Positions 3,034 to 53,043 of a DNA stretch of 64,000 nucleotides are shown here, one piece after another. The stretch is from NCBI GenBank assembly GCA_902582845.1, contig CACHTQ010000001.1, positions 61,059 to 125,058 on the forward strand, given 5' to 3'. The notes under the pieces are model-generated. The model ran no database searches. It was not told the origin of the DNA and saw nothing but the letters and a program-made list of their open reading frames with translations. The position numbers were made by a program, and so were the translations under genes. How positions within the stretch are numbered: position 1 is the stretch's first letter; the number at the start of each line of letters is the position of its first letter. The stretch comes from an uncultured Pelagibacteraceae bacterium (GTDB lineage Bacteria; Pseudomonadota; Alphaproteobacteria; Pelagibacterales; Pelagibacteraceae).

Positions 3034-3489
3034 ATGATCACTTTAGAGGAATTTAAAAAAAAACACTCAGATAAGTGTAGATTGATAGGTTTAGACCTTG
3101 GATCTAAAAGAATTGGTGTGTCAATCTGTGATGACAAACAACTAATAGCCACTCCATTAAAAACAATAAATAGAAATTCGTTAAAAGATCTCATTGATGA
3201 ACTAAGATTAATCATTAATGAAAATGATATAAAAGGAATTATTATTGGAAATCCTTTGAATATGGACGGATCATCAGGTAGATCTGCTCAATCGGTAAAA
3301 GATACAACTGAAAATATTGAAAAAAACTTGGATATTCCTATTTGTCTCTGGGATGAGAGACTCTCAACTGTTGGTGCTTTTAATCTGTCTAGCCAGTTAG
3401 ATATTAATGTGAGTAAAAGAGAAAAAAAGATCGACGAAAACGCTGCTGCTTTTATATTACAAGGAGCTTTAGATTTTTTGAATAATTAA
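3034..3489 (+). CDS. yqgF: YqgF/RuvX pre-16S rRNA nuclease / Holliday junction resolvase-like protein
   Basis: GLDLGSKRIGVS, GNPLNMDG, WDERLST, IDENAAAFILQ motifs. Confidence 0.93.
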   Translation: MITLEEFKKKHSDKCRLIGLDLGSKRIGVSICDDKQLIATPLKTINRNSLKDLIDELRLIINENDIKGIIIGNPLNMDGSSGRSAQSVKDTTENIEKNLDIPICLWDERLSTVGAFNLSSQLDINVSKREKKIDENAAAFILQGALDFLNN

Positions 3490-3492
3490 TAC

Positions 3493-3521
3493 TTGCTATT
3501 ATAGAGGTTTATAGTTATAGA
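3493..3521 (+). promoter_or_regulatory. Putative sigma70 promoter for pyrB operon
   Basis: TTGCTA-N17-TATAGA, 10 nt upstream of pyrB ATG (3532). Confidence 0.35.
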
Positions 3522-3531
3522 GTTGGTTTTA

Positions 3532-4473
3532 ATGGCAATTAAATCGAATCAGGCTATTAAAATTTCTCAAAAACATCTATTAGGAATTCAAGATTTATCA
3601 ATAAATGATGTTAACCTAATACTTGATGAGGCAAATTCATTTATTAAAGTAAATCAAAGTAAAAATAAGAAAGTTGATGTTTTAAGAGGTAAAACTCAAA
3701 TTAATTTATTTTTTGAACCTTCCACTAGAACTCAAAGCTCTTTTGAATTAGCCGGTAAAAGACTTGGGGCTGATGTTATGTCAATGAATATTAGCAACTC
3801 TGCAATTAAAAAAGGTGAAACATTAATAGATACAGCAATGACTCTTAATGCGATGCATCCTGATATTATTGTAATTAGACATCAAGACTCTGGGGCATGT
3901 AATCTACTTTCACAAAAAGTAAACTGCTCAGTTCTTAATGCTGGTGATGGCAGAAGAGAGCACCCTACTCAAGCTTTATTAGATGCATTAACAATCATAA
4001 CTCGTAAAAAAAAGATAGAAGGATTAAAAATTGCAATCTGTGGAGATATTCTTCATTCAAGAGTTGCTAGATCAAATATTTACTTACTTAGTATGTTGGG
4101 AGCAGAAGTGAACATAATCGCTCCAACAAATCTTATGCCAAAAGAAATTGAAAAATTTGGTGTTAATACTTTTACTGATATGAAAAAAGGATTGAAAGAT
4201 TGTGATATTGTTATGATGTTGAGATTACAGAATGAGCGAATGACAAGTTCATATCTTTCATCCAATAGAGAATATTATGAATATTACGGATTAACTCCCG
4301 ACAAATTAGAACATGCTAAATCTGATGCCTTAATTATGCATCCCGGTCCAATGAACAGAGGTATAGAAATAGATACAATGCTAGCAGATGATATCAACAA
4401 AAGTGTAATTAAAGAGCAAGTTGAATTGGGTGTCGCAGTAAGGATGGCTTGTCTTAAAATATTTTGTACATAA
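3532..4473 (+). CDS. pyrB: Aspartate carbamoyltransferase catalytic subunit
   Basis: [25 protein letters not shown]; ATG at 3532 preferred over TTG at 3523. Confidence 0.97.
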
Positions 4474-5759
4474 TGAAAAAACAATATTTTATAAACGCTA
4501 ATATAATTGATCCTTATAACTCCATGAATGAAAATGGGGGTCTGATTATAAGTGAAGAAGGAAAAATTGAAGCTATAGGAAAAAAAGTAAATATTAATAA
4601 TTTACCCAGTAGAGAAAAACCTACTGATTTAAAAGGTAAATATATTTTTCCTGGTTTAATCGATATGCGAGTTTTTGTTGGTGAACCGGGCTATGAGTAT
4701 AAAGAAAATTTTAGAACTTTAAGTAATGCAGCACTCGCTGGAGGTGTCACTTCTGTAGTAACAATGCCTAATACAGATCCAATCATTGATAACGTTTCTA
4801 TAGTCGATTTTCTTAAAAGAAGAGGAAGAGATAAATCAAAGATAAATATTTTTCCATGCGCCTCCTTAACAAAAAATACTGAGGGTACAAACATGACTGA
4901 ATTTGGTTTGTTACAAGGTAAAGGAATAATTGCATTCACCGATGGTGTTAAAACAATTCAAAACCCAAGATTGATGTCTAGAATAATGAACTCTGCTAAA
5001 GATTTGGGTAGTTTAATAATGCAGCACGCTGAAGATTATGAGCTAGCAAAAAATGGTATGATAAACTCTGGAATAATTGCTTCAAAATTAGGTCTATCTG
5101 GTATACCTGAAATCGCTGAGCGTATTCTGATCGAGAGAGATTTAACATTATTGGAAAAGGTTAAATGCAGATATCATATCTCTCAATTATCATCACAAAA
5201 GTCTATTGAAGTGATTAAACAAAGAAAGGAAATAGTAAAATTCACATGTGGTGTTTCAGTTAATAACTTATCTTTAAATGAAAACGACATAGGAGATTTC
5301 AAAACATTTTTGAAATTATCTCCACCATTAAGAAGAGAAGAAGATAGACTAGCTTTAGTACAAGGTTTAAAGGACGATTTAATTGACGTAATAGTTTCAG
5401 ATCACAAGCCTGAAGATGAAGAGTCAAAAAGGTTAACATTTGCTCAAGCAGCAACAGGTGCATCAGGGATAGAAACTTTGCTGTCTCTAAGTTTAGAATT
5501 ATATCATAATGGATCACTCAAATTAGAGACCATAATTAAAGCACTAACATCAAACCCTGCTAAAATATTAAAAATAAATAAAGGAAATCTATCTATTGGT
5601 AATGATGCCGATCTTTGTATAGTAGACATAGATAAACCTTGGATTGTAAAAAAAGATAAGCTTATCTCAAAATCAAAAAATACATCTATAGAAGATAAAA
5701 AACTTCAAGGCAAAGTCACAAATACATTTGTAAACGGAAAAGAATTATTTAAGCTATAG
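4473..5759 (+). CDS. pyrC: Dihydroorotase-family protein, probably an inactive PyrC'-type ATCase partner
   Basis: AALAGGVTSVVTMPNTDP, KLSPPLR, SDHKP; metal-binding DxHxH replaced by DMRVF; TAATG coupling to pyrB. Confidence 0.85.
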   Translation: MKKQYFINANIIDPYNSMNENGGLIISEEGKIEAIGKKVNINNLPSREKPTDLKGKYIFPGLIDMRVFVGEPGYEYKENFRTLSNAALAGGVTSVVTMPNTDPIIDNVSIVDFLKRRGRDKSKINIFPCASLTKNTEGTNMTEFGLLQGKGIIAFTDGVKTIQNPRLMSRIMNSAKDLGSLIMQHAEDYELAKNGMINSGIIASKLGLSGIPEIAERILIERDLTLLEKVKCRYHISQLSSQKSIEVIKQRKEIVKFTCGVSVNNLSLNENDIGDFKTFLKLSPPLRREEDRLALVQGLKDDLIDVIVSDHKPEDEESKRLTFAQAATGASGIETLLSLSLELYHNGSLKLETIIKALTSNPAKILKINKGNLSIGNDADLCIVDIDKPWIVKKDKLISKSKNTSIEDKKLQGKVTNTFVNGKELFKL

Positions 5760-5760
5760 C

Positions 5761-6339
5761 ATGGACACTTTTATCATAGGTATAATTTCATATTTAATGG
5801 GTTCAATTCCATTTGGATTGATACTAACCAAAATTTTTTTGAAAAAAGATATAAGAGATATTGGATCTGGAAATATTGGGGCTACAAATGTACTTAGAGC
5901 TGGTAATAAGACTATTGGTTACATCACGCTAGCTCTTGATATTTTAAAAGCTGTTATTCCTGTAATATTTGTTAAAATTTATTACACAGATTTTTTATAT
6001 TTAGCATCATTATGCGCGTTTATAGGTCATGTATTTCCTGTATGGCTTAAATTTAAAGGAGGGAAAGGTGTTGCAACATATGTTGGTATTTTATTTGCTA
6101 TAAATATTTATTTTGGAATTATCTTTGCTTTATCTTGGTTTGTAATTTTTGCTATAACAAAATTTTCATCTTTATCTTCATTAGTTGCTTCAGTATCAGT
6201 TCCTGCTTATTTACTAGTCACAGGTCAATTTAAAGATATATTTTTTTTTATAATCATGTTTGTGCTAATATTTTTTACCCATCGAGAAAATATTAAAAGA
6301 TTGAAAAATAAAGAAGAAACTAAGACAAAAATTTATTAA
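5761..6339 (+). CDS. plsY: Glycerol-3-phosphate acyltransferase PlsY
   Basis: GSIPFG, GSGNIGATNVLR, GHVFPVWLKFKGGKGVAT, HRENIKRL. Confidence 0.96.
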   Translation: MDTFIIGIISYLMGSIPFGLILTKIFLKKDIRDIGSGNIGATNVLRAGNKTIGYITLALDILKAVIPVIFVKIYYTDFLYLASLCAFIGHVFPVWLKFKGGKGVATYVGILFAINIYFGIIFALSWFVIFAITKFSSLSSLVASVSVPAYLLVTGQFKDIFFFIIMFVLIFFTHRENIKRLKNKEETKTKIY

Positions 6340-6340
6340 T

Positions 6341-6368
6341 TTGACTATCTAACTCTTTTAGGTAGTTT
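6341..6368 (+). promoter_or_regulatory. Putative sigma70 promoter for topA
   Basis: TTGACT-N16-TAGTTT just upstream of ATG at 6376. Confidence 0.35.
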
Positions 6369-6375
6369 GTCATTT

Positions 6376-8955
6376 ATGAACTTGGTCATTGTAGAAAGTC
6401 CAGCTAAAGCTAAAACTATCAATAAATATTTAGGTGATAACTATAAAGTATTAGCTAGTTATGGGCATATTAGAGATTTACCTTCTAAAAATGGTTCTGT
6501 TGATCCTGACAAAGATTTTAAAATGGAATGGGAGATTGATAGTTTTTCTAAAAAATATCTTAAAGAAATTACAGACGCAGCCAAAGACTCTTCAAAAATA
6601 ATATTAGCTACCGATCCTGATCGTGAGGGTGAGGCAATAGCTTGGCATGTAAAAGAGTATCTAAATGAAAAAAAACTTCTCAAAGATAAAGAAATAGAAA
6701 GAGTTGTGTTTAACGAAATTACAAAAAAAGCAGTAATTCATGGTATTGAAAATCCAAGACAAATTGAACCGCTTTTAGTTGATGCTTACATGGCTCGAAG
6801 AGCCTTGGATTACTTGGTTGGCTTTAATATTTCACCAATATTATGGACAAAACTTCCAGGCTCTAAATCTGCAGGTAGAGTTCAATCAGTAGCTTTAAAA
6901 TTAATAACTGAACGAGAACATGAAATTGAATCTTTTAAGCCAGAAGAGTTTTGGACTTTAAGTGTCAAATTTAAAGATGAAAAAAATCAAAATATTCTAG
7001 CAAGTATTAGTCAACTAGATAACAATAAAGTTGAAAAGTTCTCTTTTAGAAATAAAGATGAGATTAATAATGCCATTTCAAGTATCAGTCAAAAAAAATT
7101 TAATATTACTGATATATCTAGTAAAGTGGTAAATCGTAATCCATCAGGGCCATTTACTACATCAACTCTTCAACAAACAGCTTCAAGTCGGTTAGGTTTT
7201 GGTGCATCAAGAACTATGCAAATTGCTCAAAAGCTTTACCAAGGAGTCGAAATTGAAGGAGAAACTATAGGTTTGATCACATATATGAGAACAGATGGTA
7301 CTAATTTATCCAAAGATGCTGTTGTGGCTTTTAGAGATTATATCAAAAAAGAAATCGGCAATGAATATTTACCTGAAAGTGCTTTAAATTACTCTGGCAA
7401 AAAGGCAAAAAATGCACAAGAGGCACATGAAGCGATTAGACCCACAGATGTTATTAGAACACCCCAAAGTGTAAAAAAGTATCTAAGCACAGATCAAAAT
7501 AAACTTTATGATTTAATATGGAGTAGAGCTTTATCTTCTCAAATGCAATCTGCCAAATTTGATAGAAATACTATAACGATTACATCAAATAATAATGACA
7601 CAGTATGCAAAGCAAGTGGATCAGTTCTAAAATTTGATGGATTTTTAAAGATATATAATAATCAAAGTAAAGATGATGACGAAAACATTCTACCATCTGT
7701 GTCTAAAGGACTTGTTAATATTGAGTCCTTAATAGATGAACAGCATTTTACACAACCTCCTCCAAGATATTCTGAGGCTAGCTTAGTAAAAAAACTAGAG
7801 GAATTGGGAATAGGAAGACCATCTACTTACGCAAGTATAATTTCTACAATAGCAAATAGAGGTTATGCAGAGATATTGAATAAAAGATTTTTTCCAACTG
7901 ATAGAGGAAAACTTATTTCAGCTTTTCTTGAAAAATTGTTCTCAAAATATGTGGATTATAACTTTACTGCCGGTTTAGAGGATCAATTAGACGAAATTAC
8001 AACTGGTAAAGAAAGTTGGATAAAAGTTTTAGAACTGTTTTGGAAAGACTTCAATAGTAATGTGGCTGAAGTAAAAGAAAAAAGAACAAGAGAGGTCTTA
8101 GATCTTTTAAATGATAGTTTAGGAGATTTAGTTTTCGAAAAGGATGATAAAGGAAATATTGTAAGAAAGTGTCAATTATGTAATTCGGGGACACTAAGCT
8201 TAAAAAATAGCTTTAGGGGTGGTGCGTTTATTGGTTGTTCAAATTACCCTGAATGTAAATTTACAAGACCTTTATCTAAAGCTAAAGCGGCGGCACAAGC
8301 ACAGTTAGCTGAACCAAAATTTATTGGAAAGCATGAGAACGGCAATGATATATACCTTAAAAATGGAAGATTTGGTCCATATTTACAATATGAAAAACTT
8401 CTGGAAGATACAAAGGTTGAAAAGACACAAAAGAAAAAAAAGAAAACAAAAAAACTTAAATCGGATGTAAATGAGCTTTTAAAAAATGTTTCTATACCAA
8501 AAGGTTTGGAGCTAGACAATATAGATTTAGAAAAAGCACAATTTTTATGCTCACTACCAAAATCTTTAGGAATAAACCCTGATAATCAAAAAGAAATTAC
8601 TTTAAATACTGGAAGATTTGGTCCTTACCTAAAGTGTGAAAATAAATCTGCACGAATAGAAAATATTGAAGAAATCTTCTCTATTGGGTTAAATAGAGCG
8701 ATAACATTAATTGCTGAGGCTAAACCAGGTAGAATGTCCTCTTCAATGATCAAAGATTTAGGTGAACACCCTGAGGATAAAAAACCAGTTAGAATTATGA
8801 AGGGACAATACGGACCATATATCAAGTATAAATCTCTAAATGCGACAATACCTGAAGAAAAGGATCCTACAGAGCTTACAATGGAAGAAGCATTAATATT
8901 GATTGAGAAAAGAAAAGAATACGATAAAACAAAGAAGAAAAAAAAGAAAAAATGA
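6376..8955 (+). CDS. topA: DNA topoisomerase I
   Basis: VIVESPAKAKTI, ATDPDREGEAI, SAGRVQS, ITYMRTD, one C4 zinc ribbon and C-terminal GRFGPY repeats. Confidence 0.98.
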   Translation: MNLVIVESPAKAKTINKYLGDNYKVLASYGHIRDLPSKNGSVDPDKDFKMEWEIDSFSKKYLKEITDAAKDSSKIILATDPDREGEAIAWHVKEYLNEKKLLKDKEIERVVFNEITKKAVIHGIENPRQIEPLLVDAYMARRALDYLVGFNISPILWTKLPGSKSAGRVQSVALKLITEREHEIESFKPEEFWTLSVKFKDEKNQNILASISQLDNNKVEKFSFRNKDEINNAISSISQKKFNITDISSKVVNRNPSGPFTTSTLQQTASSRLGFGASRTMQIAQKLYQGVEIEGETIGLITYMRTDGTNLSKDAVVAFRDYIKKEIGNEYLPESALNYSGKKAKNAQEAHEAIRPTDVIRTPQSVKKYLSTDQNKLYDLIWSRALSSQMQSAKFDRNTITITSNNNDTVCKASGSVLKFDGFLKIYNNQSKDDDENILPSVSKGLVNIESLIDEQHFTQPPPRYSEASLVKKLEELGIGRPSTYASIISTIANRGYAEILNKRFFPTDRGKLISAFLEKLFSKYVDYNFTAGLEDQLDEITTGKESWIKVLELFWKDFNSNVAEVKEKRTREVLDLLNDSLGDLVFEKDDKGNIVRKCQLCNSGTLSLKNSFRGGAFIGCSNYPECKFTRPLSKAKAAAQAQLAEPKFIGKHENGNDIYLKNGRFGPYLQYEKLLEDTKVEKTQKKKKKTKKLKSDVNELLKNVSIPKGLELDNIDLEKAQFLCSLPKSLGINPDNQKEITLNTGRFGPYLKCENKSARIENIEEIFSIGLNRAITLIAEAKPGRMSSSMIKDLGEHPEDKKPVRIMKGQYGPYIKYKSLNATIPEEKDPTELTMEEALILIEKRKEYDKTKKKKKKK

Positions 8956-45121: not shown

Positions 45122-46144
45122 TTATAGTTCATTTTTAATCATATCCGAAATTAAATGATCGATAGATGTTTTTGGTTTCCAATTTAAATATTTTTTAATT
45201 TTATTGCTGTTAGCTCGTAAGTTATCAACTTCTTTTTCTCTAAAATATTTTTTACTTACTTTAATAATTACTTTATTAGTTTTTGCATCTACCCCTATTT
45301 GATTTAAACCTTTACCTTTATATATTATCTTAATACCCAACTGTTTAGCTGTTTTATTCAAAAATTGTTTAACAGAGTAGGATTTACCTGTTCCTACAAC
45401 ATAATCTCTCGGTATAGGAGCTTGAAGTATTTTCCACATTGATTCAACATATTCTTTAGCATGACCCCAGTCTCTTGTGGCATCTAGATTTCCTAGAAAT
45501 AAGATTTTTTGTTTTTTTTTTTTAATTCTTAGTAAACCATTAATAATTTTTTTTGTAACAAAATTAACTCCTCGTCGAGGAGATTCATGATTAAATAAAA
45601 TTCCATTACATGCATGAATTTTATAAGCATCTCTGTAATATTTTACTGTATGAAATGAAAAAATTTTTGAAATAGCGTATATGGAACATGGTGAGAATGT
45701 AGTAGTTTCACTTTGTGGAGGTTTTGATGAACCAAACATTTCAGAACTTGATGCTTGATAAAACTTAATTTTCTTTTTTTTATAAAATCTTATAATTTCA
45801 AGTATCCTTAAAGATCCTAATCCTGTTATATTTGCAGTATACTCAGGTATAGTTGCTGAAATTTTTACATGACTCTGAGCTGCTAAATTATAAATTTCAT
45901 CTGGGTTTGTTTTGTAAATTATACTATATAGAGAAGTAACATCCGACAAATCTCCATAATGTAAAAAAATATTCTTACTTTGAAAATTTACGCTATCAAA
46001 AATATGATCTATTCTTTCTGTGTTAGGTGAAGAAGATCTTCTTTTGACACCATGAACTATATAGTTTTTTTTAATCAAAAGTTCTGCAAGATATGAGCCA
46101 TCTTGACCAGTTATTCCAAAAATTAATGCTATTTTTTTCTTCAT
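45122..46144 (-). CDS. gmd: GDP-mannose 4,6-dehydratase
   Basis: GITGQDGSYLAE, YNLAAQSHV, YQASSSEMFG, LFNHESPRRG, GNLDATRDWGHA. Confidence 0.95.
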   Translation of the reverse strand: MKKKIALIFGITGQDGSYLAELLIKKNYIVHGVKRRSSSPNTERIDHIFDSVNFQSKNIFLHYGDLSDVTSLYSIIYKTNPDEIYNLAAQSHVKISATIPEYTANITGLGSLRILEIIRFYKKKKIKFYQASSSEMFGSSKPPQSETTTFSPCSIYAISKIFSFHTVKYYRDAYKIHACNGILFNHESPRRGVNFVTKKIINGLLRIKKKKQKILFLGNLDATRDWGHAKEYVESMWKILQAPIPRDYVVGTGKSYSVKQFLNKTAKQLGIKIIYKGKGLNQIGVDAKTNKVIIKVSKKYFREKEVDNLRANSNKIKKYLNWKPKTSIDHLISDMIKNEL

Positions 46145-46248
46145 ACTTTCATTTAGCACTTATATGAAATCAAACGAAATTTCTATAAGAAATCACACTG
46201 AAATAATAATATTAAAAAATACAAAAAATTAATCAATCTATTTTAAAT

Positions 46249-46962
46249 TTATTTTTTAATATTTTTAATTAAAAACAACTTAATCAAACCAAAAAATGAT
46301 TGAAGTATTAAAATAAAATTAACAGAGCTCTCTCCCCTCACTCTATTAGTAAAAATAGAATTTATTTCCATTATTTTCAGATTTGATTGATGAATTTTAA
46401 GTAAGATTTCTGAAAGAACAATAAAACCATCTCCAATCTTTCCACAATCTTTAATAATTATTTTTACTGCTCTTTTGGAATATATTCTAAATCCATTGGT
46501 ATAATCACTTATTTTTATTCTAAGAAAAAATCTAGCTAATAGATTTGCTAATTTTGAAAAAATTCTTCTTTTAATACTCCAATTATTAATTCTACTACTT
46601 GGTAAATATCTACTGGCGATTAATAGGTCGCAATTATTTTTTAAAAAAAAATCAATATTTCTTTTTAATTCACTTGGTTTATGAGAAAAATCAGCATCCA
46701 TTTCAACAAAAATTTGATTATTGGAATTTTGCATAGCTTTTTTTAAACCAAACAAAACTGCTGAACCTCTACCTTTTTTATTTTTTCTAACAATAAATCT
46801 AATTTTACCATTTTTTTTAAATATTTTATTAATTGATGAGTTCTTCGTATCATCAATAATTAAAATTTTACAATTTGGAACAAACTTGTGTATTTGATTT
46901 GTGAGTTTTAAAATATTCTTTTCCTCGTTAAAAGTTGGAATTACAATTATTAAATTTTTCAT
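46249..46962 (-). CDS. GT2 glycosyltransferase, DPM1/polyprenol-phosphate sugar synthase-like
   Basis: IPTFNEEKNI, KKGRGSA, EMDADFSH, ASRY, DYTNGFRIY, FTNRVRGESS. Confidence 0.85.
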   Translation of the reverse strand: MKNLIIVIPTFNEEKNILKLTNQIHKFVPNCKILIIDDTKNSSINKIFKKNGKIRFIVRKNKKGRGSAVLFGLKKAMQNSNNQIFVEMDADFSHKPSELKRNIDFFLKNNCDLLIASRYLPSSRINNWSIKRRIFSKLANLLARFFLRIKISDYTNGFRIYSKRAVKIIIKDCGKIGDGFIVLSEILLKIHQSNLKIMEINSIFTNRVRGESSVNFILILQSFFGLIKLFLIKNIKK

Positions 46963-46963
46963 T

Positions 46964-47794
46964 TTAATAAAAATAGCTTAAATTATTTCTAAAATTTTTT
47001 TTACTAAAGTTATATATTCTAGAAATTTTTTTTATATCAGCTATTAAAAAAGTAGGAGAATCTTTTTTTTTTGTTTTTTTTATTATCTTATTATTTTTTT
47101 TACATAATAAGTAAGCAATTTTCTCTAAATGAATGGGTTTACCAGTTGCAATATTGAACACGCCTTCGGATTTTTTTTTAAATAATTGATAAATAGTTTT
47201 TGTAATATGATTTGTGCTTGAAAAATCTCTGTAATGGTTAAGGTTTGAGAATTGAATTTTTTTTGATTTATTTTTTTTAATTTTATCAATTAAAGACGGA
47301 ACTATAAATGGTTTTTTTTGTTTTTTATCTGTAAAACTAAAAATTCTTCCAATACACAAAGAAATTTTTTTATTTCTTAATTTGTTTGTTAAATATCTTT
47401 CTGCAATAAGTTTAGTTTTACCATAGTAATTTTGAGGCTTAGCTTTTTCATTTTCTTGTGTCAATTTCATCTTTTTGTTTAATTTGTAAACATGAGATGA
47501 TGATGAATAAAAAAACCATTTTGGTTTATTTTTCTTTTTAAGTAAACTATTAACTAAATTTTTTGTTCCACCTACATTTACCTTATAAGCTCTTTTATTA
47601 TTCTTCTTTACCTCTTTTATGGCAACAATTGCCGCTAAATGAATAATTAAATCAAAATTATTTTTATTAACCCAGTTTTGCACTTCATTAAAATTAGTTA
47701 TATCTTTCTTAAATTGATGAAATTTAAAAGGTAAATTTTGAATAACTTTTTTACCTAAAGTTCCAGTAGATCCAGTTATTCCACATTTTAACAT
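46964..47794 (-). CDS. Extended SDR NDP-4-keto-sugar reductase/epimerase
   Basis: GITGSTGTLG, HLAA, SSSHVY, YGKTK (YxxxK), NLNHYRDF. Confidence 0.85.
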   Translation of the reverse strand: MLKCGITGSTGTLGKKVIQNLPFKFHQFKKDITNFNEVQNWVNKNNFDLIIHLAAIVAIKEVKKNNKRAYKVNVGGTKNLVNSLLKKKNKPKWFFYSSSSHVYKLNKKMKLTQENEKAKPQNYYGKTKLIAERYLTNKLRNKKISLCIGRIFSFTDKKQKKPFIVPSLIDKIKKNKSKKIQFSNLNHYRDFSSTNHITKTIYQLFKKKSEGVFNIATGKPIHLEKIAYLLCKKNNKIIKKTKKKDSPTFLIADIKKISRIYNFSKKNFRNNLSYFY

Positions 47795-48985
47795 TTAGAT
47801 ACTGTCAATTTTTAATAATAACTTTGATAACCTATTTATATTCTCTTTGCTTAATTTTTTTGTAGGTAGGCCTATAAAAAAACCTCTATCATCAATTTCT
47901 TGTGAATTTATAAGATTTCTAGATCTAATTTTTATCTTTAATAACTTTATAGCAGGTTGATTTGCAAAGTTTCCACTAATTATAGGTCTTGTTTCAACTT
48001 TATTTTTTTTTAAAAAATTTAAAAATTTTTTTTTTTTATAAATATATTTTTTTTTGACCAATAAAGGCAAACCAAACCAACTAGGTTTTAAGTTTTTTTG
48101 AGGTTCAAAAAAGTCAAATTGATTGTTCCAATTATCAAAACCTCTTAAATTTTTCAAAATCTTATTTCGATTATAAGACCTTATTTTCATCATTTTATCT
48201 AATCTTTTTAATTGACTGGTAGCAATAGCAGCAGATACTTCTAAAGGCCTTAAATTAAATCCTTGATTTATAAAATTAAACTTATTCATATTTCTTTTAT
48301 TAATTTCTCTATCCCATCCATGAGCTCTTAAAGATTTAAGTATTTTAAAATCTTTTTCAGATTTACATGCAATCATGCCTCCCTCTCCAGCAGTAATTTG
48401 ATGTGAGAAATAAAATGAAAAAGAACTAAAGTCTCCAAAAGTACCTAAATTTTTTTTTTTATATATTGATCCTAAAGACTCACAATTATCCTCAATTAAT
48501 AAAATTTTTTTTTTGTCAGCAAAACTTCTTATTTTATCTAGTTCAGCACAATTACCTAAAACATTTATAATCATAATTGCTTTAGTTTTTTTTGTAATAT
48601 TTTTTTTGATAGTACTTAGATCTAGAGAAAAGGTATTAATATTTACATCTAAAAGTTTTGGTTTTAATCCTGCTTGAATTATAGGCCACAATGATGTTGA
48701 CCAACATACGGCTGGAACTAAACATTCATCTCCTTTTTTAAGATGATTTTTTCTTAAAGGATTAACTGCACAAAATAAAGCAAGTAAATTAGCAGAGGAG
48801 CCTGAGTTTACCATTAGACAATATTTGGTTCCAATTTTTTTTGCAAAATATTTCTCAAAATATCTTGTCTTTTTTGACATGGTTAATTGACCACTTTTTA
48901 GAACTTTAATACCTGAATTTATATCCTCTCGGCTATAATCGTCAGGATGAAGTGGGTAACTAAATATTTTATTTTTATTTTTCAA
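47795..48985 (-). CDS. DegT-family PLP enzyme, ColD-like GDP-4-keto-6-deoxymannose 3-dehydratase
   Basis: MVNSGSSANLL, WSTSLWP, EDNCESLG, SFYFSHQITAGEGG (His at the usual Schiff-base Lys), LRAHGW, ETRPIISGNF; TTG start. Confidence 0.8.
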   Translation of the reverse strand: MKNKNKIFSYPLHPDDYSREDINSGIKVLKSGQLTMSKKTRYFEKYFAKKIGTKYCLMVNSGSSANLLALFCAVNPLRKNHLKKGDECLVPAVCWSTSLWPIIQAGLKPKLLDVNINTFSLDLSTIKKNITKKTKAIMIINVLGNCAELDKIRSFADKKKILLIEDNCESLGSIYKKKNLGTFGDFSSFSFYFSHQITAGEGGMIACKSEKDFKILKSLRAHGWDREINKRNMNKFNFINQGFNLRPLEVSAAIATSQLKRLDKMMKIRSYNRNKILKNLRGFDNWNNQFDFFEPQKNLKPSWFGLPLLVKKKYIYKKKKFLNFLKKNKVETRPIISGNFANQPAIKLLKIKIRSRNLINSQEIDDRGFFIGLPTKKLSKENINRLSKLLLKIDSI

Positions 48986-49922: not shown

Positions 49923-50008
49923 TGGTGCCCTCGGCCAGACTCGAACTGGCACTCCGCAAGCGGCAAGGATTTTAAGTCCTTTGTGTCTACCAATTTCACC
50001 ACGAGGGC
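49923..50008 (-). tRNA. tRNA-Leu (TAA)
   Basis: GCCCTCGTGGTGAAATTGGTAGACACAAAGGACTTAAAATCCTT...GTTCGAGTC...GAGGGCACCA, 86 nt with variable arm. Confidence 0.97.
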
Positions 50009-50080
50009 ATGAGTTATTTTCATGAGTGTTTATGCTAATATTTATAATTGAACAAGATGAATAAGTAAATTTTTTTTATT
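49970..50080. repeat. Direct repeat copy 1 (tRNA-Leu 5' half from anticodon loop plus upstream promoter region)
   Basis: Aligns ungapped to 52933-53043: first 41 bp identical, 8 mismatches in the remaining 70 bp. Confidence 0.95.
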
Positions 50081-50081
50081 T

Positions 50082-50132
50082 TATCTCTTTATGCTCTGGT
50101 CTTGCTCTGGTTATCCTATAAAATCCTACAAA
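50082..50132. repeat. att-arm-like motifs, left inner end
   Basis: TGCTCTGGT twice (11-bp period) then ATCCTA(T/C)AAA twice; counterparts at 52777-52807 (direct) and 52868-52881 (inverted). Confidence 0.7.
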
Positions 50133-50139
50133 AAATTTA

Positions 50140-50526
50140 TTAATTATATATTTGTCTTTTTTTTTTTCTTTTTCTTGTAGCTCTTTTTAGTGAATCTGGA
50201 CCAAATCTATTTTTACCTTTTGTACCCTCTGGTATTAAAAAGAATAAAAGAACTAATCCACCAATGAATGGAATAAAGCTTATTAATAAAAAAAACCCCG
50301 ATCTATTTGTGTCATGCAATCTTCTTACACCAACAGAAATTGCAGGAATTAATGTAAATAAAGTTATTCCAAGAAAAAAATAACCAATTTCATTTTCTAT
50401 AATTGTAGAAATAAAATATGAGGGTGAAACGATTAATTGAAACCACCAATATTCTGATCTACTAGCTCTACCTTGAAAGACAAAATACTTTTTTAAACAT
50501 GTAGATACAGACTCACTAAAAGTCAT
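50140..50526 (-). CDS. DUF805 (YhaH-like) inner membrane protein
   Basis: KKYFVFQGRASRSEYWWF, VRRLHDTNRSG, IPFIG, GKNRFGPD. Confidence 0.92.
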   Translation of the reverse strand: MTFSESVSTCLKKYFVFQGRASRSEYWWFQLIVSPSYFISTIIENEIGYFFLGITLFTLIPAISVGVRRLHDTNRSGFFLLISFIPFIGGLVLLFFLIPEGTKGKNRFGPDSLKRATRKRKKKRQIYN

Positions 50527-50529
50527 CTT

Positions 50530-52059
50530 TTACCTTACCATTGCCCAACTCAAAGCGTCAATTGTATTTTCAGGTACATTGCTAACACTTATAATAATTA
50601 TAATTAAAACAAACATTAAATAAGAAAAAATCCCATATCTTTTACTATATTCATCAATTTTTGAATTTAAGAGTCTTTGTTTGGAATTTAATCCTAGCTG
50701 ATAACTAATTATAGCTAAAATATTTGGAGCAGCTGCATATAAATAGGATAATAAAATAATCCAATCCATTATAGTTAGATAGTTTAGTTTTGGTATTTCA
50801 TTATCAATAACAAAATTATATGCTATTAAAGATAATAGACACACAATCGTAATAGTCAATTTTGACTCAACTTCCTTTCTATTTAGCCAAACAGATGACC
50901 AACAAATAAATAATATTAAGATTATTGGTAATATTATTTTGAAAATATAATAAAAATACTCTCTTTCAATATGAATCTCATACTCCAGCTTTGAAAATAT
51001 AACATCCCTTAAAATTAAATTAGAATTGTTCAATTTTATATTTTTAAGATCCCATCCTGGAATAGAAATTTTATTTTTTGAATAATCAATCAATCTATAT
51101 GCAGAGTCATTATAGTCTAAAATTGATTCTTCAATATCTTCACCAATAATTGAAATTTTAATTATCTGTTTATCAAATGGAAAAGATGACAAATTAAAAT
51201 CATTTTTAATCTCCCAAGTGCCGACAGAATTTCCAGTAAATTTTATCAGTTTATCTTCACCATCTTTATGAGGGGAAATATCAACAAGCTCCTCAGTTAA
51301 ATTTTTATTTTCCTCAATTAAATTTTCAAATCCTATAATTTCTATCGGATTTGGAATTCTATTTTCTTTTGAATAATCATAGTTTAAACCTATACATGGT
51401 GTCCCCGCGTATGTGCCATCATCTTGAAGTGGCATTATCGTTTTTTTTGCTAAATCTATGATTTGTGGATAGGTAGACTCATAATAGGATAGATCACTAC
51501 CTATATATGCAGAAAAAGTTACAGAGGAATTGATTACATCAATTTCTTTAATACTCTCTAATGAGAAATCTACTCCATACCACGCTATTTCATATTTTTG
51601 AGGTTTAATTTTAAATTTAATTTCTTTATTGTCACGTAACAAAATAATCTGACTTTCTTTATTAATATCTGGAAAATAAACAATATCAAAAATTTCTTTA
51701 TCACTCATTTTACTCAGATCGACATCATCTACTGAAATCAAAATATCACCCTTTCTAAACAAATCGTAAGATTTATATGTCCATACATTTGCAATAACTG
51801 GATAATTATTACTTCTTCGAATTTTTGATGTTAAATCTTCTGAATATAAGCTTATATCCTTATCTGGAGGGTCCATATTAAATGAAAAGCCGAAATCCTT
51901 AAAGATATCAAGAGGTGTTTGCACACTAAGCTTATCAAATTTCAAATTTTTATATTGATCTACAAAATCATAGCATTGAAAAGGTATAGAAGCATTAATT
52001 CTAACAATTGATAATAAAATAAGGATAACACAATAAATAAAAAAATTTATGATTTTCAT
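50530..52059 (-). CDS. Pentameric ligand-gated ion channel (GLIC/ELIC superfamily) with N-terminal PDZ-like domain
   Basis: Signal peptide; PDZ-like KGDILISVDD...ILLRDNKEI; Pro-loop FNLSSFPFDKQ; IPGW; IER-YYIFKIILP (M1); M2 ESKLTITIVCLLSLIAYNF; IPKLNYLTIMD; M3 and M4. Confidence 0.88.
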   Translation of the reverse strand: MKIINFFIYCVILILLSIVRINASIPFQCYDFVDQYKNLKFDKLSVQTPLDIFKDFGFSFNMDPPDKDISLYSEDLTSKIRRSNNYPVIANVWTYKSYDLFRKGDILISVDDVDLSKMSDKEIFDIVYFPDINKESQIILLRDNKEIKFKIKPQKYEIAWYGVDFSLESIKEIDVINSSVTFSAYIGSDLSYYESTYPQIIDLAKKTIMPLQDDGTYAGTPCIGLNYDYSKENRIPNPIEIIGFENLIEENKNLTEELVDISPHKDGEDKLIKFTGNSVGTWEIKNDFNLSSFPFDKQIIKISIIGEDIEESILDYNDSAYRLIDYSKNKISIPGWDLKNIKLNNSNLILRDVIFSKLEYEIHIEREYFYYIFKIILPIILILFICWSSVWLNRKEVESKLTITIVCLLSLIAYNFVIDNEIPKLNYLTIMDWIILLSYLYAAAPNILAIISYQLGLNSKQRLLNSKIDEYSKRYGIFSYLMFVLIIIIISVSNVPENTIDALSWAMVR

Positions 52060-52757
52060 ATCTTTTTAATTTCATTTTCTTTTTTTTTTAATTTTTGTTT
52101 CTTCTTAAGCTCGCTATGTAAGTAAAAAGAAACAATAACTAAAATTCCAATAATTATCATTGGATTTGGCCATACTAAGAAATTATAAAAACCATGAAAT
52201 AAGTATGGTAAGGCTAGTGATAATATTAAAAATTTTTTATTGCCTGTAAAAGCATACATCCCAAAATAATAACCCATAACCGCACCATTTAGGCCGTGCA
52301 TAGGTATAGCTGAATAAGATCTTCCCAATGCTATTAAATATGACAACTCAGCATAATCAACATTCTCTTCTTTTGCTATTACTTCTGCCCATTCATATAC
52401 ATAAGTATAATTTTCATATGTCGCAAAACCTAATGAAACAACAACTCCATAAACTAAGCCGTCCATAGGTTCGTTAAATTCATTTCTTTTCAAAACTATT
52501 AAATACAGAATTGAAAATTTTAATAATTCTTCTGCCCATGCAGGACCTAAAAAACTACTAGTAAGATTTTCTGAATATTTTGATCCGTCATAAAAAAAAT
52601 CATGACTTAAACCATTTAAAATTCCCGCGGGTAAACATATTAAAAACCCAAGAAAAAAAATTAATACTATTGTTCCTTTAGGTTCCTTAAACCTATCTGA
52701 TAATGTAAAATATAGTAATAAAACTATTGGTGGAATAAAGGTTAATAAAATTGTCAT
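52056..52757 (-). CDS. PrsW-family intramembrane protease
   Basis: DRFKEP, AEELLKF, GFATYEN, AIPMH, LFHGFYN; multiple TM helices. Confidence 0.92.
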   Translation of the reverse strand: MTILLTFIPPIVLLLYFTLSDRFKEPKGTIVLIFFLGFLICLPAGILNGLSHDFFYDGSKYSENLTSSFLGPAWAEELLKFSILYLIVLKRNEFNEPMDGLVYGVVVSLGFATYENYTYVYEWAEVIAKEENVDYAELSYLIALGRSYSAIPMHGLNGAVMGYYFGMYAFTGNKKFLILSLALPYLFHGFYNFLVWPNPMIIIGILVIVSFYLHSELKKKQKLKKKENEIKKI

Positions 52758-52776: not shown

Positions 52777-52910
52777 TATCTCTCCATGCTCTTGTCTTGC
52801 TCTTGTTTGAGCAAATTAATTGAGCTTTATTTTCTAATCGTAATTGAAAGCTAAATTAAAATTATATGATTTTATAGGATATTTAGACTACCTTGGACTA
52901 ATATGAACTA
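52777..52910. repeat. att-arm-like motifs, right inner end
   Basis: TGCTCTTGT twice (52787-52806); GATTTTATAGGATA (52868-52881, inverted copy of 50112-50125); AGACTA/GGACTA/GAACTA at 10-bp period (52885-52910). Confidence 0.65.
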
Positions 52911-52932
52911 ACTCGTCTGTGAATCCCTCGTC

Positions 52933-53043
52933 TTTTAAGTCCTTTGTGTCTACCAATTTCACCACGAGGGCATAAATGAATTTCATGAGTATTTATTATA
53001 ATATTTATAATTGAACAAGCTGAATAAGTAAATTTTTTTTATT
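52933..53043. repeat. Direct repeat copy 2: displaced tRNA-Leu 5' fragment (52933-52971) plus promoter region
   Basis: ttttaagtcctttgtgtctaccaatttcaccacgagggcat identical to 49970-50010; no variable arm, T arm or 3' acceptor strand. Confidence 0.95.

Follow-up and report, generated by a model that had tools for sequence, protein, structure and literature searches.

The subject of this study is a gene in the window, by which we mean the whole 64,000-nucleotide stretch of DNA from an uncultured Pelagibacteraceae bacterium (contig CACHTQ010000001.1, positions 61,059 to 125,058). The gene lies at 50530..52059 on the minus strand. As read from the list of open reading frames (ORFs) and its translation, it is intact and encodes 509 amino acids, along which a Sec signal, a short helix with an invariant cysteine, a PDZ domain and a complete, GLIC-like ion channel of the pentameric ligand-gated type (pLGIC) follow one another. 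That the protein is a pLGIC carrying a PDZ domain is, in our judgement, close to certain. Its start codon overlaps the end of a gene for a PrsW-family protease, and this overlapping gene, missed in a first-pass annotation made from the letters alone, is the strongest functional lead at the locus. The parts of the channel gene are given below; ECD and TMD denote the extracellular and transmembrane domains, and pLDDT is the predicted local distance difference test score of the structural model.

50530..52059, minus strand: PDZ-pLGIC gene, 509 amino acids plus stop (ORF; GLIC match with E 8e-23; AlphaFold2 model with mean pLDDT 80.6)
51988..52059, minus strand: Sec-type signal peptide, residues 1-24, with a putative cleavage site (K2, hydrophobic core, INA/S cleavage-type site; model helix 2-21)
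51913..51987, minus strand: alpha1-like helix (27-36, with C29) and linker, residues 25-49 (conservation; model superposition)
51604..51912, minus strand: PDZ domain, residues 50-152, with the carboxylate-binding loop D55-F-G57-F58 (profile, Pfam, Foldseek, VIA)
50959..51603, minus strand: pLGIC extracellular beta-sandwich, residues 153-367, with FPFD 293-296, G335-W336, R366 and C222 (GLIC alignment, invariant columns, model)
50578..50958, minus strand: TMD with helices M1-M4, residues 368-494 (model helices; Pfam Neur_chan_memb)
50788..50871, minus strand: M2 pore helix, residues 397-424 (residue-by-residue GLIC alignment; invariant in 34 homologues)
50533..50577, minus strand: conserved periplasmic post-M4 tail, residues 495-509, with P496, N498 and W505 (conserved columns; low model confidence)

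Every motif quoted in the first-pass annotation is present in the translation, namely DFGFSF (residues 55-60), YPVIANV, FRKGDILISVDDVDL and QIILLRDNKEIKFKIKP and, in the channel half, FPFD (293-296), IPGW (333-336), the pre-M1 arginine R366 and ESKL (398-401). Compared with a 95%-identical relative at locus L001, the ratio of nonsynonymous to synonymous substitution rates (dN/dS) is 0.23 for the whole gene, and 0.29, 0.24 and 0.10 for the PDZ, ECD and TMD parts, the last three values being based on small counts. These sequence comparisons indicate purifying selection. A chance ORF or a pseudogene is ruled out by the intact frame, the dN/dS value and the invariant M2 helix.

The DNA of the window has a G+C content of ~27%, and the genomes most closely related to it come from single cells and isolates of the Pelagibacteraceae (SAR11). 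The source assembly comprises 0.92 Mb in 19 contigs, is 76.5% complete and holds one pLGIC gene.

Channel domain and pore

The ORF was compared with all PDB chains by phmmer, and residue positions were assigned from the HMMER alignment. The best match is GLIC (E 8e-23), with residues 256-460 aligned on GLIC 87-284. NCBIfam LGIC_1 matches with E 3e-27 and 95.8 bits, under its curated 500-bit cut-off, and TIGR00860 with E 3e-15, under its curated full-length cut-off. Pfam Neur_chan_memb (PF02932) scores 24.3 bits (E 4.5e-05) against a gathering cut-off of 28.1 bits, a threshold that is operational and no biological criterion, and the Pfam search of the query gave no match to Neur_chan_LBD (PF02931). 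The protein is thus a divergent member of the pLGICs. The PF02932 threshold is passed by close relatives, and also by the homologue in genome G637, which lies outside SAR11. Given the E value to GLIC, more than 700 homologous protein clusters and the dN/dS of 0.23, the match is far beyond chance.

A full-length AlphaFold2 model was calculated from 34 homologues. Foldseek matches it to pLGIC chains with E 2e-18 over ~345 columns (TM ~0.7 by target), and VIA-align does so with Z 23.9 and a root-mean-square deviation (rmsd) of 3.5-3.9 over 325 aligned residues. Both sets of matches span the entire ECD plus TMD. The four helices of the TMD lie at 368-391, 397-421, 430-456 and 459-494 in the model, and the first ~95 residues of the ECD are divergent and carry extra short helices, the GLIC alignment starting at residue 256. 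Invariant in the 34-sequence alignment are FPFD (293-296), G335-W336, R366, L409 and nearly all of M2; the post-M4 tail ends in Arg or Lys. The earlier reading of the C-terminal region as a full pLGIC is hence borne out by phmmer, Foldseek and VIA alike.

The pore helix can be placed on GLIC residue by residue: E398 corresponds to E222 (-2'), T402 to T226 (2'), V406 to S230 (6'), L409 to I233 (9'), A413 to A237 (13'), F416 to I240 (16'), D419 to E243 (19') and P423 to P247 (23'). The ring numbering and the roles of the rings in GLIC are those of Sauguet et al. 2013 (PMC3590989), and in ELIC the activation gates are L9' and F16' (PMC12637682). The prime numbers assigned in the first-pass annotation (E-2', T2', V6', L9', A13', F16', P23') are right by this alignment and the numbering of PMC3590989, and its description of a cation-type pore with E-2' and an L9'/F16' gate is upheld by the alignment together with both papers. 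The local sequence is V-E398-S-K400, in which E398 is invariant, so that there is an acidic ring at -2' and no Pro-Ala-Arg anion motif. With this glutamate ring and the acidic rings at 19' and 21', the pore is likely to be cation-selective. By homology, its gate would be hydrophobic and ELIC-like, formed by L9' and F16'. The channel probably assembles as a homopentamer, since a single pLGIC gene was found in the 76.5%-complete genome.

The likeness to GLIC (Gloeobacter violaceus, proton-gated; PDB 3EAM, 4HFI) extends from the best sequence match to the Pro-loop, the pre-M1 Arg, the four-helix TMD, the short M3-M4 loop, Glu -2', Thr 2', Ala 13', the acidic residue at 19' and Pro 23'. GLIC differs in having neither an alpha1 helix nor an accessory domain, and in carrying S6', I9' and I16' against V6', L9' and F16' in the present protein; here, moreover, the ECD is remodelled in its first half, with additional helices and a conserved pair of cysteines. 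With ELIC (Erwinia/Dickeya, amine-gated) the protein shares the L9'/F16' gate and, as predicted features, cation selectivity and a homopentameric state. ELIC lacks both an accessory domain and a PrsW partner, and its selectivity Glu is labelled -1' in the numbering of PMC12637682.

The PDZ insertion and its family

Taken alone, the query gives weak matches to Pfam PDZ models (E 0.04 and 0.005), under the gathering threshold. PDZ models are matched by 26 of the 34 family members, with a best E of 3e-06. When a profile of the N-terminal domain (NTD, residues 25-165), built from 34 homologues, was run against the PDB, the 60 best matches were all PDZ domains; the PDZ tandem of an Aquifex RseP homologue stands at the top (E 3e-13), and PSD-95, ZO-1 and DegP are found lower down. 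The PDZ region modelled alone reaches a pLDDT of 89.5. Foldseek relates the NTD model to the PDZ domains of DegS, HtrA, CtpA and DegQ with E of 2e-4 or higher. VIA, which is independent of Foldseek, ranks the CtpB PDZ first (Z 11.2, rmsd 1.9, 88 residues aligned) and the Vibrio Ctp PDZ second (Z 11.0), and all 50 matches listed are PDZ-containing proteins; the Z scores to the CtpB, Ctp and DegS PDZs range over 8.7-11.2. The first-pass annotation had read residues ~55-155 as PDZ-like, and the family profile and the predicted fold both assign this region to PDZ.

The closest relatives of the domain, in sequence and in structure, are thus those of DegS/HtrA, Ctp/Prc (S41) and RseP. In these systems, the PDZ domain reads free periplasmic C-termini to switch activity. 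It is fused to the protease there, while in the present case it is fused to a channel, and the protease, PrsW, belongs to another family and is separate and co-translated.

It is important to point out that the domain does not simply precede the channel. In the VIA comparison of the full model with GABA-A beta3, the alignment begins at model residue 24-30 and covers 325 of ~330 target residues, which means that helix 27-36 superposes on alpha1 of the eukaryotic receptor. To our knowledge, this helix is absent from GLIC and ELIC. The model therefore places the PDZ domain (~50-152) as an insertion that loops out at the apex of the receptor, between alpha1 and beta1. The first-pass description of the domain needs correction on this point: it is no simple N-terminal prefix, because helix 27-36 with C29 comes first. 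C29 is conserved in 100% of 119 full-length homologues, C222 in the ECD is invariant in the 34-sequence alignment, and the distant G637 homologue has cysteines at the sequence positions matching both. A C29-C222 disulfide probably staples the helix and the PDZ domain to the ECD.

Within the PDZ domain, conservation is very uneven. The x-Phi-G-Phi loop, D55-F-G57-F58, sits between model strands 51-55 and 58-60 and is the most conserved PDZ element among the 119 homologues, G57 being present in 100% and F58 in 94%. Of the secondary-structure elements, the alphaB specificity helix shows the lowest conservation in the closest subfamily (0.59), and it is, together with betaF, among the least conserved in the 119 homologues family-wide (0.46). 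Overall, the PDZ sequence is poorly conserved, with a mean column identity of 26%. The pattern in loop and helix suggests a C-terminus-binding groove that has been retained while its specificities diverged.

A word-indexed search returned 762 protein clusters (279-891 amino acids) at E <= 0.001; the best 120 of these are nearly all 480-560 amino acids long and are mostly unannotated marine metagenome proteins. Identity to the query is 12-76% in the PDZ domain, 22-86% in the ECD and 63-94% in M1-M3, i.e. the periplasmic half evolves fast and the pore is nearly invariant. A homologue is carried by 27 of 300 sampled Pelagibacteraceae species genomes (~9%), which makes the gene accessory, and by 11 of 123 high-quality Pelagibacteraceae genomes, the window's own genome counted. 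Among 400 other alphaproteobacterial genomes, nine have a pLGIC and one of these, G637, from a different family, has the PDZ-bearing form; the NTD is absent from the other eight matches. At three SAR11 loci (L008:3884-6996, L009:3884-6987 and L017:3884-7001), two tandem PDZ-type pLGIC paralogues lie 3' of a single PrsW gene.

The PrsW gene and the islet

We now consider the surroundings of the channel gene, for which the following features were found.

52056..52757, minus strand: gene for a PrsW-family glutamic-type intramembrane protease (Pfam PrsW-protease E 4e-33; TGA/ATG overlap)
50140..50526, minus strand: gene for a DUF805 small membrane protein (Pfam DUF805 E 1.6e-26; start 3 nucleotides past the channel stop)
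52933..53043, no strand assigned: left 111-nucleotide direct repeat, comprising the tRNA-Leu promoter region and 5' half (repeat family D1, 93% identity, spacing 2963)
49923..50080, minus strand: intact tRNA-Leu(taa) at 49923-50008 and right repeat copy at 49970-50080 (ARAGORN; repeat family D1)

The TGA of PrsW and the ATG of the channel share bases (ATGA). NCBIfam intramemb_PrsW matches with E 8e-33 and 113.9 bits, under the curated cut-off of 225 bits, and no exception was seen in 30 homologues to the residues E76, E77, K80, E115, H154 and H188, of which the catalytic motifs (EExxK, FxxxE and two His motifs) consist. PrsW lies upstream of the channel homologue in 41 of 43 genomic loci, and in ~25 of the 43 its ORF runs into, or directly up to, the start of a PDZ-type channel, even though these channels are just 31-49% identical. 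In a sample of 301 Pelagibacteraceae genomes, PrsW occurs in 21 of the 28 that have a pLGIC, compared to 13 of the 273 that do not. We consider it rather probable that PrsW is functionally linked to the channel.

What the locus shares with the regulated intramembrane proteolysis of PrsW-RsiW-sigmaW in Bacillus subtilis is a PrsW-family protease, encoded here by the upstream gene, with intact catalytic motifs. The difference is that the conserved neighbour here is an ion channel and that the islet, consisting of PrsW, PDZ-pLGIC and DUF805 alone, has no sigma or anti-sigma gene; none was seen in the longer islands either. Proteases of the PrsW family act as site-1 proteases on extracytoplasmic parts of membrane proteins, as on RsiW in B. 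subtilis, and this counts for the possibility that the channel itself is the substrate. Cleavage of its periplasmic part or of the post-M4 tail would then activate or destroy it, and the PDZ domain would be the regulatory element of a split PDZ-protease. The translational coupling of the two genes fits this, as does the origin of the closest PDZ structures, all of them from PDZ-regulated proteases (Ctp, HtrA/DegS, RseP), and those parts that PrsW could reach in the membrane, the TMD and the post-M4 tail, are conserved where the ectodomain varies. PrsW is missing from some carriers of the channel, however, and on balance we regard the channel as an improbable substrate.

The L003 and L019 loci (both 3293-5551) have a PrsW that is 94-97% identical to that of the window next to a channel that is 48-49% identical. 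At L003, the nucleotide similarity stops exactly at the channel start codon and returns near residue 281, and the periplasmic half of this channel appears to have been swapped as a cassette.

Two candidate ligands of the PDZ domain within the module were considered and rejected. The first is the channel's own post-M4 tail, which is ruled out by geometry: with the PDZ domain at the apex in the model, the full height of the ECD separates it from the membrane, and the tail ends in Arg/Lys. The second is the C-terminus of PrsW (window 52059-52120), whose tail is conserved, Lys-rich and PDZ-ligand-like, ending in Ile/Leu/Val with the consensus ExEKK-I/L/V. This one is ruled out by topology, as a poly-Lys tail should be cytoplasmic according to the positive-inside rule while the PDZ domain is periplasmic.

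PrsW, PDZ-pLGIC and DUF805 together form a 2.96-kb islet that is bracketed by the 111-nucleotide repeats. DUF805 adjoins the module in just eight of 43 related loci and is therefore no core part of it. At L001, a near-identical module continues past DUF805 with a flavin amine oxidase, a canonical 399-residue pLGIC and a phage CII/CP76-like regulator, which makes the islet of the window a minimal version of this longer island.

The setting raises the question of whether the module is simply cargo of a mobile element, serving the element or phage-host conflict, for example by depolarising the membrane in abortive infection or exclusion. Repeats of tRNA-Leu bound the islet, the same set of module genes stands in different contexts in different genomes, and the ectodomain is hypervariable between near-identical flanks. 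A CII/CP76-like gene flanks the PrsW/PDZ-pLGIC module in most SAR11 loci (e.g. L010:12-470 and L001:8435-8938, minus strand), and in the non-SAR11 carrier G637 it is found directly upstream of the PDZ-pLGIC (L050:5476-5937; 30% identity, E 4e-20). On the other hand, none of the three islet proteins has a match in PADLOC, a pattern scan of IMG/VR viral contigs and a tblastn search of 50,697 phage records both failed to turn up a relative, an integrase is absent from the islet, and the window's own genome, which is 76.5% complete, yielded no CP76-like gene. Such a cargo role is in our view very improbable. The first-pass remark that a channel of this class is unexpected in a streamlined genome has to be qualified, in that pLGICs were already listed in Pelagibacter and the gene is an accessory island gene, present in ~9% of the sampled Pelagibacteraceae species genomes.

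A number of further observations concern the islet and its relatives. It is unusual for a tRNA gene to have an insertion at its 5' side. Just inside the islet ends (50082-50112 and 52777-52807) lies a further pair of repeats, 31 nucleotides long and 87% identical, which may represent recombination or regulatory sites. The flavin amine oxidase gene of the longer islands (Pfam Amino_oxidase E 7e-44) is present at L001, L003, L004, L010-L012, L014, L015, L021, L038 and L039. At L001 (region 5905-8429) and L010, the two loci at which gene ends were read, it reaches or overlaps the start of a gene for a canonical pLGIC of ~400 residues that lacks a PDZ domain. By analogy, the two look like an amine-sensing pair, recalling the primary-amine agonists that PMC3119659 mentions for ELIC. 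Next to the islet, the region 46001-48985, with a G+C content down to 22% and a gene like DegT-family sugar aminotransferases (47795-48985) beside it, looks like a surface-glycan hypervariable region.

As to expression, a promoter and terminator scan of this AT-rich DNA gave 20 sites against 23 expected and is uninformative. Only ~5% of the words sampled recur in the four RNA libraries, of marine or coral origin, that were compared, and the contigs cover mainly the tRNA-Leu repeat and parts of PrsW; they are not counted here as evidence of transcription or habitat. Both the duplicated 5' half of tRNA-Leu (52896-53002) and the real tRNA accumulate metatranscriptome contigs; the cause may be cross-mapping, or else genuine transcription that runs from the duplicated promoter into PrsW.

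Possible function and significance

In the explanation that we favour, the protein would be a periplasm-facing homopentamer of the GLIC/ELIC type with a cation pore that is shut at rest by the L9'/F16' gate. The PDZ domain at each ECD apex, stapled by C29-C222, would act as an accessory sensor. Its carboxylate-binding loop would capture a periplasmic peptide or protein by the free C-terminus, the apex would move as a result, and the pore's gating equilibrium would shift. In this way, a signal from proteolysis or from the envelope would be turned into cation flux without transcription. The co-translated PrsW would be the likely partner, either making, trimming or removing the C-terminal ligand, or processing the channel. 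We judge this explanation as a whole, i.e. a PDZ sensor biasing a cation channel with PrsW as partner, to have an even chance of being right, and we propose only tentatively, from the conservation of the loop, that the PDZ domain binds a C-terminal ligand that modulates gating. A more specific version, in which PrsW and the PDZ-pLGIC form a two-protein device turning a proteolytic event into ion flux, is unlikely in our estimate. Here, PrsW would cut a periplasmic or membrane substrate, perhaps upon envelope damage or phage attack, and the PDZ domain would read the newly exposed C-terminus and open the cation pore.

Several findings weigh against the PDZ-sensor explanation. In Pfam, the query itself reaches the gathering threshold of neither PDZ nor Neur_chan_memb. 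The SAR11 genomes are related and the samples non-independent, and shared mobility could explain the co-occurrence with PrsW, which is lacking in the near-complete SAR11 carriers G227 and G255 and in the non-SAR11 G637, and in some lineages lies ~7 kb off on the opposite strand. At L003, PrsW is 97% identical to that of the window, yet the PDZ and ECD of the adjacent channel (P0020) are only 35-40% identical. A near-identical PrsW beside so diverged a PDZ/ECD means that PrsW cannot read a specific surface there, and without such surface matching any contact between PrsW and the channel would have to go via conserved parts or a third molecule. Support from transcription is weak, consisting of one 204-nucleotide contig on the channel gene in one RNA library. 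Finally, DeCLIC, the other case of an accessory NTD with a solved structure, modulates gating via Ca2+ and not via peptides.

The last point leads to another option, namely that the PDZ domain has no peptide ligand and serves as a cap, be it structural or allosteric, or else in assembly or anchoring, and is comparable to the DeCLIC NTD. The ECD would then be gated by a small molecule, pH or divalent ions, and PrsW would be a mere island neighbour. The DeCLIC NTD, known from a solved structure, both binds Ca2+ and modulates gating, and a domain tied at both ends and probably disulfide-stapled is well suited to be a rigid cap. The canonical pLGIC and amine oxidase of the longer islands point to small-molecule amines as signals in the neighbourhood, PDZ-pLGICs without PrsW do exist, and the low column identity of the PDZ domain also agrees with a cap. 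What is hard to reconcile with a pure scaffold is that the sole strictly conserved PDZ feature is the carboxylate-binding loop, the specificity helix being variable; the stop/start overlap with PrsW, kept across deep divergence, also speaks against it. We consider the ligand-free cap possible, if doubtful.

Extra periplasmic domains before the ECD, thought to be allosteric, are known from DeCLIC (Desulfofustis) and from the PBP-I and Cache+MCP-N fusions of Tasneem et al. 2005, and the present protein resembles these in that respect. The domains described there are Ca2+-binding beta-rich lobes, PBP-I, Cache or MCP-N, and PDZ is unmentioned; the PDZ domain here is, moreover, inserted after an alpha1-like helix, and the gene is paired with a protease. 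The NTD1 and NTD2 lobes of DeCLIC resemble the Ca2+-binding domains of Tk-SP and collagenase. The present protein, whose own NTD is identified as a PDZ domain, is not classed here as of DeCLIC type.

Jaiteh et al. 2016 list Pelagibacter among the organisms bearing pLGICs and do not mention extra domains, and the available text of their supplement has no Pelagibacter rows. In the searchable literature, we found no description of a PDZ-pLGIC, of ligand-gated channel function in SAR11, or of PrsW together with a ligand-gated channel, in agreement with the first-pass statement that no characterised PDZ fusion is known. What seems new is the pLGIC with an inserted PDZ domain and a conserved protease partner, pLGICs in Pelagibacter being already known.

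The pLGICs are heavily studied, yet the physiological role and the natural ligands of the bacterial members are largely obscure. A PDZ domain in the receptor apex would amount to a new regulatory principle for the superfamily and offer a tractable model of top-down allostery in the ECD, and the translationally coupled PrsW provides a concrete and testable idea of where the ligand comes from. Since cultured carriers exist (HIMB4 at L022 and HIMB1456 at L015), experiments are feasible. The family is large, with hundreds of marine metagenome clusters, and sits in flexible SAR11 islands, and is therefore relevant to the question of how streamlined cells with little regulation perceive their environment. 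Were the two-protein device true, it would give the pLGICs their first member gated by the C-terminus of a protein, and mobile islets of the most abundant bacteria in the ocean would carry a switch for stress or abortive infection that needs no transcription.

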